Positions 1 through 3,000 of a stretch of DNA of 64,000 bases are shown one piece after another. The DNA is from a plasmid. Position 1 is the first letter of the stretch. Every line of letters begins with the position of its first letter. Where the stretch lies: NCBI RefSeq assembly GCF_058153355.1, contig NZ_JBLWLY010000002.1; one strand, 5' to 3'. The position numbers are program-made.

Positions 1-3000
1 GTGACTAATCTTCAACAAACTTATTACCGCCAGGTAAAGAACCCGAATCCGGTGTTCACACCCCGTGAAGGTGCCCGGACGCTTCCGTTCTGCGGGAAAC
101 TGATGGAAAAGGCGGTGGGCTTCACCTCCCGTTTTGATTTCGCCATTCATGTGGCACATGCCCGTTCGCTTGGTCTGCGTCGGCGCATGCCACCGGTACT
201 ACGTCGCCGGGCCATTGATGCGCTGCTGCAGGGGCTGTGTTTCCACTATGACCCGCTGGCCAACCGCGTTCAGTGCTCCATCACCACGCTGGCCATTGAG
301 TGCGGACTGGCGACGGAGTCTGATGCCGGAGTACTCTCCATCACCCGAGCCACCCGTGCCCTGACCTCCCTGGCTGAGCTGGGGCTGATTACCTACCAGA
401 CGGAATATGACCCGCTTATCGGGTGCTACATTCCGACCGATATCACGTTCACACCAGCACTGTTTGCCGCTCTCGATGTGTCTGAGGTGGCGGTGGCTTC
501 CGCACGCCGCAGTCGTGTGGAATGGGAAAACAGACAGCGCAAGAAGCAGGGACTGGATACCCTGGGTATGGATGAACTGATGGCGAAAGCCTGGCGTTTT
601 GTGCGTGAGCGTTTCCGCAGTTACCAGACAGAGCTTAAGTCCCGGGGAATAAAGCGTGCCCGTGCGCGTCGTGATGCGAACAGGGAACGTCAGGATATTG
701 TCACCCTGGTGAAACGGCAGCTGACGCGTGAAATCTCGGAAGGGCGCTTCACTAACAATCGTGAGGCGGTAAAATGCGAAGTGGAGCGTCGTGTGAAGGA
801 GCGCATGATTCTGTCACGTAACCGTAATTACAGCCGGCTGGCCACAGCCTCCCCCTGAAAGTGACCTACATGTAACCACAGCGTGCCGCCTTCCATGCCG
901 CTGGCGCGGCATATGTTGGTGGCTGTGTCTGAAAGGTTATATACTCTGCATAAAACCTGACAACACGCTGATTACCAGGCGAATGGGCATTATTCCTCCG
1001 GTTATCGCCTGCTTGTGAAACAATATCACCGGGGCGAATATCGATACTCTGACTCGTTATACCCATACGTGCGACATCAGAAAACCTGTAATTGCCCTTT
1101 ATTGAATGAAGGGAGGAGTCAACTATGAATAGCACCACACATTACGAAAACGCCAATTTCCTGCGCGAGCTGGCCGAAAGCCTGCCTCGTATTTTGCCAG
1201 AAGGCAGTACAGACAAGTCTGCACTATTGCAACGCCTCGCTAATGAAGAACTGGCACGGGCGGTATACGACGAACAGGTACGAGCGAAAGTTGCCGCTGC
1301 TCGCGCCGATAAACGGCCGGGAATGAGTTCCGCGCAACTGCGCCAGCAACTACAGGGATAATGAGATGGACGCTCCAGATTTTACGGTATCAAAGTACCA
1401 GACTGGATCGTTGCAATACGTCCTGAAAAATTAGGAGCGTCCACATGAAAGTATCAACTCTTGGTATCGACCTGGCAAAGAACGTTTTTCAGCTTCATGG
1501 TGTCGATCATGAAGGCCATACTATTTTGCGTAAAAAACTCACCCGGGCTAAGTTTGTTCAGTTTGTGATTCAACTGGAACCTTGTCTGATTGGCATGGAA
1601 GCCTGCTCATCCAGTCATTATTTTGCGCGATTATTCACCCGCTATGGTCATGAGGTAAAACTCATACCTCCGCAGTATGTGAAGCCTTATGTGAAAACGA
1701 ACAAGACGGATGCAGCAGATGCTGAAGCAATCTGCGAAGCGGTAACCCGTCCGAATATGCGTTTTGTTCAGATAAAAACCGAAGAGCAGCAGGCCGTTTT
1801 AGCGTTACACACTGAACGGGGAATACTTATCCGTGAGCGGATTGCCTGTGCCAATAGTTTAAGAGCGTAAGCGCATCATTTAAACCGTCTTTCGCCTCCC
1901 TTTCCTGTTTCCGATACTAATGTCCATTTTCGCAGTAAAAGGACATTTAAGATGAATGCACGAAAGGCGGTACTGGCAGATAATCCGGAATTGATCCTGC
2001 GTGTGCTACAGCTGAGATTTGACGAGTCACTGTCGTACCCGCGCATTTCTGCGCAGACTGGTGTCAGCAAAACCGCCATTTTTTCTCTGGTGAGGCGATT
2101 TCACCAGTAAGGCAGTATGACTTTCCGTGAGACAGATGCTGGCCAACGTGGGATATTTAACGCGGGTTAACATCGTTGTCAGAGCCGCATGGGTGAGCTG
2201 TTGCTACACCCCGGTATTTCCACCACGGAGGCCAGCATGAACAACAATAACACATTGTACGTCGGGTTAGATGTTCACAAAGAATCGATTACTGTCGCTT
2301 ATGCTATCAATTCAGAACCTGTTGAACTGATGGGTAAAATTGGCACATCACCTACTGATATTCAGAATCTTTGTAAACGTCTCAGGTCAAAGTCATCGCA
2401 GGTCAGTATCGTTTATGAAGCGGGGCCCTGTGGTTATGGACTTTATCGTCGGCTGGTGAAATCCGGTTTTGACTGCATGGTCTGCGCCCCCTCACTTATC
2501 CCGAAAAAACCGGGGGAGCGGGTTAAAACCGATCGCCGTGATGCCATCAGACTTGTGCGTTCACTGCGTGCAGGAGATCTTTCTGCTGTCTACGTACCCG
2601 GCATTGAAGATGAGGCATTCCGGGATTTGGCCCGGGCATGGGCATCTGCCCGCGATGATTTACGGCATGCAAGGCAACGTCTGAAATCGTTTCTTCTGGT
2701 TCATGGGGTCCATTATGTCGGGCGAGCAGATTGGGGCCCTGCACACCGACGCTGGCTCAGCAAATACTCATTCGAAAGTCCCTGGCGACAATTAGCTTTT
2801 GACGAACACCGTCGTACAATAGAAGACCGGCAGGCACAATGTGAACGGCTGGAATCCGCCCTGAAGGAGGCCGTTACCGAATGGAGGCTGTATCCGGTAG
2901 TAGAGGCGCTGCAAGCCATGCGAGGGATTCAGTTTATTACTGCGGTTGGATTAATTTCTGAACTGGGTGATCTGACCCGTTTTGAACATCCACGACAACT

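Follow-up and report, generated by a model that had tools for sequence, protein, structure and literature searches.

Origin-proximal toxin-antitoxin (TA) cassettes are known from IncFII plasmids: R1 carries parD (kis/kid) and R100 carries pemIK in the slot of the locus described here, and both presumably act by post-segregational killing. For the invasion plasmid (pINV) of S. sonnei a relBE pair has been mentioned (PMC10383432). The closest known relative of the gene considered here is PaaA2, the ParE-neutralising antitoxin of E. coli O157:H7, which is encoded by the paaR2-paaA2-parE2 module of prophage CP-933P (PDB 3ZBE, 5CW7, 5CZE, 5CZF; Pfam family PF21217). PaaA2 has no DNA-binding domain, and the paaA2-parE2 pair has been assayed for plasmid stabilisation on an unstable mini-replicon (PMC8630535). 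PaaA antitoxins are reported to be inactive against ParE toxins of other modules, even paralogous ones (PMC4803016). When type II TA modules decay, orphan or degraded antitoxin genes can be left behind, a phenomenon reviewed in PMC7354431.

The window, i.e., the whole stretch of plasmid DNA that was analysed, comprises 64 kb. An ORF on its + strand (positions 1125-1361) starts with ATG and encodes 78 aa followed by a TAA stop codon (Table 1). Both the ORF and a GGAGG ribosome binding site had been predicted from the sequence alone, and are borne out by reading of the sequence and by the ORF list; only the claimed 7 nt between this site and the ATG have to be corrected to 8 nt. The predicted distance of 266 nt to the repA stop was also confirmed (repA ends at 858, gap 859-1124). 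The original prediction left the ORF unassigned and located it just past the replication origin region, where IncFII replicons carry small accessory ORFs. It can now be assigned as the gene in antitoxin position of a PaaA2-like/ParE type II TA module, and the oriR/RepA4 segment that should precede it is deleted at 867/868. The idea of an accessory slot holds in part: relatives carry the full-length gene together with a ParE toxin gene in this very slot, but there is no similarity to RepA4. The ORF is a genuine gene that is not full length, since its relatives encode 87 aa.

Table 1. Features at the start of the window (positions as in the window; a slash marks a junction between two positions).
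Feature	Position	Strand	Basis or remark
IncFII repA, 285 aa, intact	1-858	+	TIGR03474 570 bits, PRK13750 606 bits, PF02387; window begins at GTG
Deletion junction, no microhomology	867/868	.	blastn vs CP090301 (L001)
Short IncFII backbone normally following the origin region	868-912	+	pSS_046 (L003) 5162-5206, 95.6%
TA cassette leader, presumed promoter/operator region	913-1124	+	~95% identical upstream of the antitoxin gene in IncFII relatives
Shine-Dalgarno GGAGG	1112-1116	+	direct reading; 8 nt ahead of ATG, spacer 1117-1124
Antitoxin gene, codons 1-78 of 87 ("plasmid stabilization protein", PaaA2-like)	1125-1358	+	homology
TACAGGGA, left part of the 13-nt target mimic	1351-1358	+	insertion point after 1358
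TAA stop of the ORF	1359-1361	+	supplied by nucleotides 1-3 of the inserted IS
5' fragment of IS110-family IS: left end and transposase codons 1-141 (ORF 1445-1870)	1359-1866	+	NF033542
IS66-family fragment, tnpA N-terminus (ORF 1952-2110)	1866-2111	+	NF038385 profile 2-42/190; H31 match 1866-3400
ISSso6 (IS110-like) inside the IS66-family fragment	2112-3629	+	annotated ISSso6 in 100% identical copies

The protein search suggested along with the prediction found homologues of the ORF in 763 plasmid records, 755 of which cover at least 80% of it. They form 352 protein clusters at E≤1e-3, and the modal length of the family is 87 aa. A lack of homologues and a frame broken in related plasmids had been named as evidence against a real gene; instead, the relatives are intact and the window copy is the disrupted one. 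Over all 78 residues the ORF shows 96-97% amino acid identity to the proteins of CP090301 and of a second relative (L002), which both continue with RYQELRNEL, and it differs from its closest relative in one residue. Identity and conservation of the family are thus observed directly, and the dN/dS values of 0.05-0.11 between diverged members, for which dS is saturated, point to strong purifying selection on the family. The substitution E47V is private to the window copy or rare, as position 47 is E in 90, Q in 27, K in one and V in one of 120 cluster representatives. Together with the loss of the toxin it may be counted as relaxed constraint on the window copy.

Searches of Pfam and NCBIfam with the ORF alone gave only sub-threshold matches to PaaA2 and RelB, and a family profile was therefore required. 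Against PF21217 the ORF scored 18.3 bits (E 0.0024) and a full-length relative 18.7 bits, both below the gathering score of 27, while the NCBIfam model TA_RelB_antitoxin gave 20.6 bits (cutoff 50) over the PaaA2-like stretch only. PF21217 was matched by 21 of 30 family members at E≤0.01 (best 5e-7). A phmmer comparison to PaaA2 resulted in an E value of 0.003, a profile of 30 relatives matched PaaA2 from the PDB with E 2.3e-9, and hhalign placed residues 45-86 on PaaA2 residues 18-59 (probability 96.7%, E 3.7e-10). Judged by these alignments, the C-terminal half of the 87-aa protein is homologous to PaaA2. Identity as a ParD (RHH), RelB or Phd/YefM antitoxin was rejected, as there was no Pfam match to these families and no N-terminal RHH or Phd fold. 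The AF2 model of the antitoxin is all-helical (helices 3-23, 28-61 and 69-86) and has no N-terminal strand. Residues 1-44 are modelled as an N-terminal helical hairpin; they were left without fold assignment because Foldseek found nothing in the PDB at E<1 and only generic helical hairpins above this value. Residues 45-78 represent the retained part of the putative ParE-neutralising region, amounting to 34 of about 42 PaaA2-like residues.

In about 750 plasmids the 87-aa antitoxin gene lies directly upstream of a gene for a 99-aa ParE-family toxin (PF05016, E 8.6e-13; loci L001, L002, L004, L007 and L027; e.g. WP_000119542), and the two genes overlap by 11 nt. In CP090301 the toxin gene spans 2180-2476. 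Antitoxin and ParE genes overlap in the same way in Pectobacterium and Xenorhabdus and in relatives that share only 48-53% identity with the antitoxin (L030, L031). Plasmids of Escherichia, Klebsiella and Salmonella frequently carry intact modules; in pAA of E. coli 042, in CP090301 and in a plasmid of Salmonella Poona the pair occupies the same slot as the remnant does in the window. On replicons unrelated to IncFII (small plasmids of the ColE1-like and Rep3 types, Xenorhabdus contigs) the gene is likewise accompanied by ParE in every case; it therefore moves with the toxin and not with the replicon. In a phmmer search of the PDB the toxin had no match at E≤0.01, and those above this value were weak matches to ParE1 (E 0.05-0.4), so that a fold comparison was needed. 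The predicted structure of the toxin is of ParE type, and ParE2 from the complex with PaaA2 comes closest to it (rmsd 1.7-1.9 Å). A fused-chain AF2 model of antitoxin and toxin reached a pTM of 0.72, with pLDDT values of 93-96 for antitoxin residues 51-80 and a strand at residues 67-68. Toxicity, neutralisation and post-segregational killing by the intact module would be expected by analogy at the family level to PaaA2-ParE2 (PMC8630535, PMC4803016). In other IncFII plasmids an IS91-family element interrupts the antitoxin gene at residue ~76 and the toxin gene is lost, which suggests that the same kind of relic arose there independently. P0125 and P0129 are other relatives that appear to be orphans.

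In relatives, the counterpart of the leader stretch from about 968 to 1105 is annotated by PGAP as an XRE/HTH pseudogene (L008 1770-1907, L004 3672-3809, L027 1970-2107). Its translation matched no Pfam or NCBIfam family, and it resembles neither the 74-aa gene that lies upstream in the Pectobacterium loci nor the HTH_35 gene of the Xenorhabdus loci. An ancestor of the three-component type (paaR-paaA-parE), with a separate HTH regulator gene upstream, is conceivable. A consensus scan for promoters and terminators between 840 and 1460 passed no sites. An inverted-repeat search found only a 9-nt palindrome (1036-1049), and no operator could therefore be proposed. When leaders were aligned across diverged loci, the Shine-Dalgarno sequence alone was conserved; its purine-rich stretch is kept in all six aligned relatives, even where the remaining leader is unrelated. 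The window copy retains frame, start codon, ribosome binding site and 257 nt of upstream sequence.

The repA DNA has its best PLSDB match (96.3%) in the pINV of S. sonnei and S. dysenteriae. As determined by blastn, positions 1-867 of the window correspond to 1-867 of CP090301, and positions 868-1358 to 1664-2160. The 796 bp in between (868-1663 of CP090301) are absent from the window and contain CIS/oriR, the DnaA box TTATCCACA, the AT-rich origin and the RepA4 ORF; the RepA4 CDS of L027 (1422-1808) likewise maps inside this segment. A second copy of the oriR segment was not found in the 64 kb by blastn, and the single TTATCCACA of the window, at 23301, is at chance level. By this comparison the IncFII repA has lost its cis-acting origin, and the mode of replication of this plasmid would therefore probably be described wrongly by replicon typing or by conventions that let a sequence "start at repA". 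The segment that follows the deletion (868-912) is common even to plasmids with a different TA cassette: pSS_046 diverges after the equivalent of window position 912 and continues with its own Phd/YefM-type and ParE/RelE pair.

Homology to the TA module stops at 1358, and IS homology starts from there. The IS sequence following 1358 (TAATGAGATGGACGC...) is identical to chromosomal copies, and the whole fragment is 99.8-100% identical to copies in the chromosomes of 176 E. coli genomes. The full element, as present in E. coli N3 (L019 1509-2894), has about 1386 bp and encodes a 341-aa transposase; the fragment departs from it after 1866 and matches NF033542 with 154.8 bits (cutoff 140, profile positions 2-145 of 343), and PF01548 as well. 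The chromosomal copies have identical flanks and lie at a single defined sequence within a repeat of the chromosome. The empty target, present in 5398 of 5426 E. coli genomes, reads TACAGGGA/CGTTAC (the slash marks the insertion point). At the same point the intact antitoxin gene reads TACAGGGACGTTA, and this gives a common 13-nt target, TACAGGGA/CGTTA. When the window junction was compared with both the intact gene of CP090301 and the empty chromosomal site (L022), 13 of 13 nt were identical and the flanks were unrelated. Truncation point, IS junction and target match can thus be read directly from the DNA. The 3' non-coding region of the IS contains an 8-nt complement to the target (TAACGTCC segment), which spans the insertion point. 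By its DEDD transposase and its fixed insertion target, the element can be classified as IS110-family, and it may be guided by a bridge/seek RNA. The truncation removed the last nine codons, which include half of the predicted helix 69-86 and correspond to PaaA2 residues 52-63; as it stops at residue 78 of 87, the ORF does not encode the complete putative toxin-binding region with both helices.

An IS66-family fragment takes the place of the rest of the IS110-family element, the 3' end of the antitoxin gene and the toxin gene. The ISSso6 copy within it is missing from the sister contig L009, in which window position 2111 is joined directly to 3630. Unlike in its relatives, the window ORF is not immediately upstream of a ParE gene, and tblastn (E≤1) found no ParE toxin gene in the 64 kb of this plasmid, which is likely larger than 200 kb. 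The junctions 867/868 and 1358/1359 occur in no PLSDB plasmid and in no complete E. coli genome, but in two short public contigs (L009, L010); these stem from two independent assemblies and are 100% identical to the window across the junctions. With three independent datasets, an assembly artefact such as a chimera at 1358/1359 is unlikely.

We consider the ORF a 3'-truncated orphan antitoxin gene, the relic of a type II TA cassette downstream of the IncFII origin, which is most likely inert, and assign a probability of about 85% to this reading. In the intact module, antitoxin residues ~45-86 (end of the long helix, short strand and last helix) would wrap around and neutralise ParE by analogy with PaaA2, and plasmid-free cells would be poisoned by ParE after decay of the labile antitoxin. 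The IS110-family element probably entered between codons 78 and 79, at the 13-nt match to its usual chromosomal target. Such an insertion would have cut off the last nine residues, supplied the TAA and uncoupled the toxin gene, and a later IS-mediated rearrangement, in this presumed order, would have removed the toxin gene along with the 3' end of the antitoxin gene and what was left of the IS110-family element. The remnant has a ribosome binding site and leader and may still be translated; a product that retains most of the PaaA2-like region could thus still be made. On this plasmid of the Shigella/EIEC invasion type it is most likely inert or nearly so. Since no cognate toxin is encoded in the 64 kb, it most likely does nothing, although a cognate or cross-reacting ParE may be encoded in the rest of the plasmid or in the chromosome.

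An active role of the truncated antitoxin is conceivable but improbable. As a functional orphan it would be expressed from its own leader and selected as an "anti-addiction" factor, which neutralises ParE of co-resident or incoming IncFII/ColE1-type plasmids and protects the host from post-segregational killing. Anti-addiction by orphan antitoxins is an established hypothesis (PMC7354431), and the frequent cognate modules in Escherichia, Klebsiella and Salmonella plasmids would provide toxins to be neutralised; however, the reported failure of PaaA antitoxins to act on paralogous ParE toxins (PMC4803016) argues against such an effect. Start codon, perfect GGAGG and leader are all intact, and 34 of the ~42 PaaA2-like residues are kept, whereas half of the last predicted helix is gone and the rare E47V lies at the start of the toxin-binding region. 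The identical arrangement in three datasets and the further apparent orphans (P0125, P0129) are consistent with selection, but the gene sits amid nested IS fragments beside a deleted origin, and its near-identity to intact relatives is equally explained by a recent event. A more far-reaching version, which we regard as slightly less probable still, is that the remnant is expressed and that, thanks to it, bacteria with the invasion plasmid can live with the widespread IncFII/ColE1 plasmids of the intact PaaA-like/ParE type or lose them at no cost. A single insertion of an IS of the RNA-guided type would then have made an immunity gene out of an addiction module, owing to the chance resemblance of the antitoxin 3' end to the IS target.

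It is very improbable that the ORF is an accessory ORF of the IncFII replicon, whether of RepA4 type or for some other replication or stability factor encoded near the origin. Its position downstream of repA and the NCBI family name "plasmid stabilization protein" would fit, but RepA4 lies within the deleted 796 bp and has no similarity to the ORF (BLASTP E 0.26 over 8 residues), and the gene accompanies ParE on ColE1-like and Rep3 plasmids and Xenorhabdus contigs; the location of RepA4 and the ParE linkage outside IncFII already contradict this view. Even less credible is a chance ORF or a product of the IS junction that has no coding history. Many ORFs of this size are expected in 64 kb and the stop codon is IS-derived; nevertheless, full 78-residue homologues in hundreds of plasmids, the conserved ribosome binding site and partner gene and the apparent strong purifying selection (763 records, 352 clusters, dN/dS 0.05-0.11) already refute it.

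As a decayed piece of a TA module, already annotated by GenBank as "plasmid stabilization protein", the ORF itself is probably of little consequence. The break point may serve as a clean example from nature of how an IS110-family element enters a plasmid gene at a 13-nt copy of the sequence that it targets in the chromosome. In our literature search no paper mentioned antitoxin or toxin by RefSeq accession, none described a PaaA-like/ParE module on IncF plasmids, and the searchable literature held no experiment on this plasmid antitoxin subfamily. A widespread subfamily, an N-terminally extended PaaA2 relative paired with a ParE2-like toxin, thus appears experimentally uncharacterised.

The family resembles PaaA2 in its C-terminal region, which aligns and has the motif Y-[DN]-E-W/Q-[VIL]-R-A-K-V-A...A-D-x-R-P in common with it, in the position of its gene directly upstream of a ParE-family toxin gene, whose predicted product is closest in rmsd to ParE2, and in having no recognisable RHH, HTH or AbrB DNA-binding domain. 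Unlike the 63-aa PaaA2 it has a predicted N-terminal helical hairpin of about 44 residues, its single sequences score below the Pfam threshold, and it is plasmid-borne, whereas the PaaA2 module sits in a prophage immunity region. Instead of an intact paaR-type regulator upstream, there is only the putative HTH pseudogene called by PGAP, and the window copy furthermore is without an equivalent of PaaA2 residues 52-63 and without a toxin. The "RelBE" pair of the S. sonnei pINV pSS_046 likewise follows directly on the origin region of an IncFII replicon and presumably serves post-segregational killing as well, but its antitoxin is of Phd/YefM type, an unrelated family, and its module is intact whereas that of the window is a relic. 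The modules of R1 and R100 are intact as well, and their antitoxins Kis and PemI belong to a family unrelated to the window antitoxin. With the target-specific IS110/IS1111-family elements, which use RNA-guided transposases, the inserted IS shares the DEDD transposase and the defined target site; unlike in complete elements, only the 5' 508 bp survive in the window, and the element itself is therefore dead there. As in other orphan or degraded antitoxins of decayed type II TA modules, the frame survives, the toxin is gone and an IS is found at the break; unlike in those, the break can be explained at the nucleotide level by a target-specific IS110-family insertion.

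The ORF on the plus strand, seen in the sequence and in a mechanical ORF list, starts with ATG and encodes 78 amino acids followed by TAA. The GGAGG described upstream of it is present, with a spacer of 8 nt and not 7 nt. The original prediction left the ORF unassigned and proposed a protein search. The ORF is a toxin-antitoxin (TA) antitoxin gene lacking the end: the product shows 96–97% identity across all 78 residues to proteins of 87 aa, and their last nine residues, RYQELRNEL, are missing. Megablast of positions 859–1444 against 72,556 plasmids revealed DNA of about 95% identity, limited to 868–1358, in many IncFII plasmids, where it is annotated as "plasmid stabilization protein" or "hypothetical protein". 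The intact gene (264 nt) is found in CP090301, an ETEC plasmid, pAA of E. coli 042, a Salmonella Poona plasmid and others, and overlaps by 11 nt with a 300-nt gene annotated as RelE/ParE-family toxin, which matches Pfam ParE_toxin (E 8.6e-13). By tblastn, antitoxin homologues occur in 763 plasmid records (755 with at least 80% query coverage). The family comprises 352 clusters at 90% identity, 61 representatives remain at 50%, and the modal length is 87 aa. Between diverged members dN/dS is 0.05–0.11 (Nei-Gojobori; synonymous sites saturated). A family of this size with such dN/dS values led us to reject a chance ORF. The pair, with its 11-nt overlap, is also present on small Pectobacterium plasmids, Xenorhabdus contigs, a Rep3 plasmid and a metagenomic contig, the antitoxins there being only 48–53% identical; therefore the small gene moves with its toxin and not with the IncFII replicon. 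The ORF is a decayed member of a family that has already been annotated. We found no literature on this common plasmid antitoxin family, which is apparently unstudied.

Homology to the TA cassette stops at 1358, and the following sequence matches the 5′ part of an IS110-family element (full length about 1386 bp, as in L019 1509–2894 of E. coli N3; 341-aa transposase WP_000868863.1) at 99.8–100% identity; 176 complete E. coli genomes carry this element. All chromosomal copies lie in one repeated sequence, of which an E. coli genome has about two. When the sequences flanking the copies on the left and right were joined in silico, the resulting 120-nt empty site was found without interruption in 5398 of 5426 E. 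coli genomes (e.g., L022), with ...TACAGGGA|CGTTAC... around the insertion point. Codons 76–80 of the intact antitoxin gene read ...CAAC TACAGGGACGTTA TCAGG..., identical to the chromosomal target in 13 of 13 nt and with unrelated flanks, and the break in the window falls exactly between TACAGGGA and CGTTA. From this match and the exact break we conclude that the insertion was site-specific, into a sequence that mimics the target by chance; the first three bases of the element form the TAA stop of the ORF. RNA-guided targeting by bridge or seek RNAs is ascribed to the IS110/IS1111 family, also in the NCBIfam name. The 3′ non-coding region of the full-length element contains TAACGTCC, the complement of GGACGTTA (about 0.05 such matches expected by chance), which spans the insertion point. 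TAACGTCC is a candidate guide segment, and this complementarity would fit RNA-guided targeting. Truncation by a target-specific element, explained at the nucleotide level, is worth keeping. A RelE/ParE toxin pseudogene of E. coli O157:H16 98-3133 (L021 3109–3276), which lacks its N-terminus and is followed by an HTH gene, has a chromosomal copy of the element about 200 bp away; the element or its target repeat may have caused this truncation.

The element is itself cut by an IS66-family fragment, into which ISSso6 has inserted. ISSso6 is an insertion polymorphism: it is missing from the contig of GCA_043012465.1 (junction 1762–1763), with 100% identity on both sides. Contig collapse in this draft assembly may also account for its absence.

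The ORF had been placed just past the replication origin region, which does not hold, since compared to CP090301 the origin segment is missing from the window. The missing 796 bp (868–1663 in the CP090301 locus, 1069–1864 in L027, an annotated IncFII relative) start 9 nt past the repA stop, leaving a clean junction at 867/868 without microhomology, and no second copy exists elsewhere in the window. This segment includes the DnaA box TTATCCACA and AT-rich origin of CP090301; where relatives are annotated, it also holds the RepA4 ORF (L027 1422–1808). RepA4 and the ORF share no similarity, and a RepA4-like protein was rejected. The gap of 266 nt to the repA stop (ending at 858) had been given correctly; it is about 1068 nt in relatives and is this short because the origin region was deleted. 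The repA gene at the window start encodes a full-length IncFII initiator and is intact, while CIS/oriR and RepA4 are lost; a repA without its cis-acting origin also deserves to be recorded. A further replicon, beyond the 64 kb, must drive replication of the plasmid.

The IncFII backbone directly after the deletion (45 bp) is shared with S. sonnei pSS_046 (compared over L003 5162–5857), where an unrelated Phd/YefM-type antitoxin and a ParE/RelE toxin follow, the "relBE" of S. sonnei pINV (PMC10383432). Since different TA pairs occupy one slot, it is an exchange point for TA cassettes, with its boundary at about 912/913. Apart from this region, the window belongs to an invasion plasmid of Shigella/EIEC type (icsA, virA, RnaG, type III secretion region) with 99.2–99.7% identity to pINV of S. 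dysenteriae, S. boydii and EIEC. Neither the 867/868 nor the 1358/1359 junction was found in any PLSDB plasmid or complete E. coli genome. Two independent public contigs (GCA_043012465.1 and SRR31441161) carry both junctions at 100% identity, which shows the arrangement to be real.

Positions of features in the window
Feature	Position	Level
IncFII backbone shared with pSS_046	868-912	
GGAGG	1112-1116	
ORF (+ strand)	1125-1361	
IS110-family element, 5′ part	1359-1866	
IS66-family fragment	1866-2111	
ISSso6	2112-3629	
Group II intron, two D1-D4 and one domain V-VI segments	51329-51445, 55479-55556, 63481-63599	Rfam gathering level
RnaG sRNA, antisense to icsA leader	60070-60189	Rfam gathering level
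ALIL frameshift pseudoknot of IS3-family element	62241-62357	Rfam gathering level

The ORF alone scores 18.3 bits against Pfam PaaA2 (threshold 27) and 20.6 bits against the NCBIfam RelB antitoxin (threshold 50), both on residues 46–68. Among PDB sequences the 87-aa protein finds PaaA2 (3ZBE/5CW7/5CZE/5CZF) at E 0.003 (phmmer), a profile of 30 relatives at E 2.3e-9, and 21 of these 30 match PF21217 individually. Hhalign, with a PaaA2 query that agrees with the PDB chain throughout the aligned segment, aligns antitoxin residues 45–86 to PaaA2 18–59 with 96.7% probability. Thus the link of the family to PaaA2 firms up at the profile level. An AlphaFold2 model from the 30-relative alignment has three helices (3–23, 28–61, 69–86; mean pLDDT 89), without the N-terminal strand of RHH antitoxins, and Foldseek found no significant match to it in the PDB. 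When antitoxin and toxin were fused by a linker (pTM 0.72), the toxin part adopted the ParE fold, the confidence of antitoxin residues 51–80 rose to 93–96, and residues 67–68 formed a short strand. The PDB neighbours superposing best on the toxin model are ParE2 chains of the PaaA2-ParE2 complex (rmsd 1.7–1.9 Å, 24–26% identity).

Most probably, the intact module is a type II system of the classical kind that acts by post-segregational killing. Its ParE-family toxin would poison the cell, the PaaA2-like C-terminal region of the antitoxin would wrap and neutralise it, and upon plasmid loss decay of the antitoxin would result in killing. Gyrase/topoisomerase poisoning is the paradigm for the ParE family, and by analogy this toxin may act likewise. 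The window copy has neither the toxin nor half of the last helix, and no antitoxin 3′ end or toxin gene was found anywhere in the 64 kb. It also carries a rare E47V exchange where the binding region begins (among 120 cluster representatives: E 90, Q 27, K 1, V 1), has nested IS fragments around it and sits next to a dead replicon. We consider the ORF a relic of a TA antitoxin gene with a probability of about 0.85. That the antitoxin end survives is expected, because loss or silencing of the toxin is harmless, while losing the antitoxin first is lethal. Given this identity, the remnant is probably inert. The main alternative is that the truncated antitoxin retains an anti-addiction role, as hypothesised for orphan antitoxins (PMC7354431). 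We keep this role, as an unlikely one, next to an inert relic for two reasons: RBS, start codon and leader are undamaged and most of the binding region survives, and the 64 kb represent no more than a part of the genome.

The antitoxin-ParE module decays repeatedly: in other IncFII plasmids an IS91-family truncation at residue ~76 arose independently, and the toxin was likewise lost. In L023–L026 (3001–3288; P0021, e.g., E. coli O43:H2) the antitoxin, cut at about this residue, is fused to foreign sequence adjoining an IS91-family transposase, and the ParE gene is gone. Other decayed variants are frameshifted (P0044, P0107) or internally deleted (P0027). Two full-length distant relatives (P0125 in L028, P0129 in L029; 54–60% identity) have no ParE downstream, one being located on a 1.58-Mb chromosomal contig beside a 136-aa gene without known family. 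Either these relatives are natural orphans or, possibly, a different partner is paired with them.

PGAP calls an XRE/HTH pseudogene upstream of the antitoxin in IncFII relatives, a call that profile searches did not reproduce. A 74-aa gene precedes the antitoxin by 75 nt on Pectobacterium plasmids (L011–L014 2202–2426), and an 85-aa HTH_35 gene by about 260 nt in Xenorhabdus (L015–L018, e.g., L016 1985–2242). These two genes and the IncFII pseudogene are mutually unrelated; the former two are possible third components of their modules. PaaA2-ParE2 is an addiction module established by experiment, in which PaaA2 has no DNA-binding domain and the regulator PaaR2 precedes the pair (PMC8630535, PMC4803016). 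The relationship to PaaA2 makes the plasmid family worth keeping in view; it appears to differ from PaaA2-ParE2 in having no intact upstream regulator, and differs from PaaA2 in an added N-terminal helical hairpin of about 44 residues.
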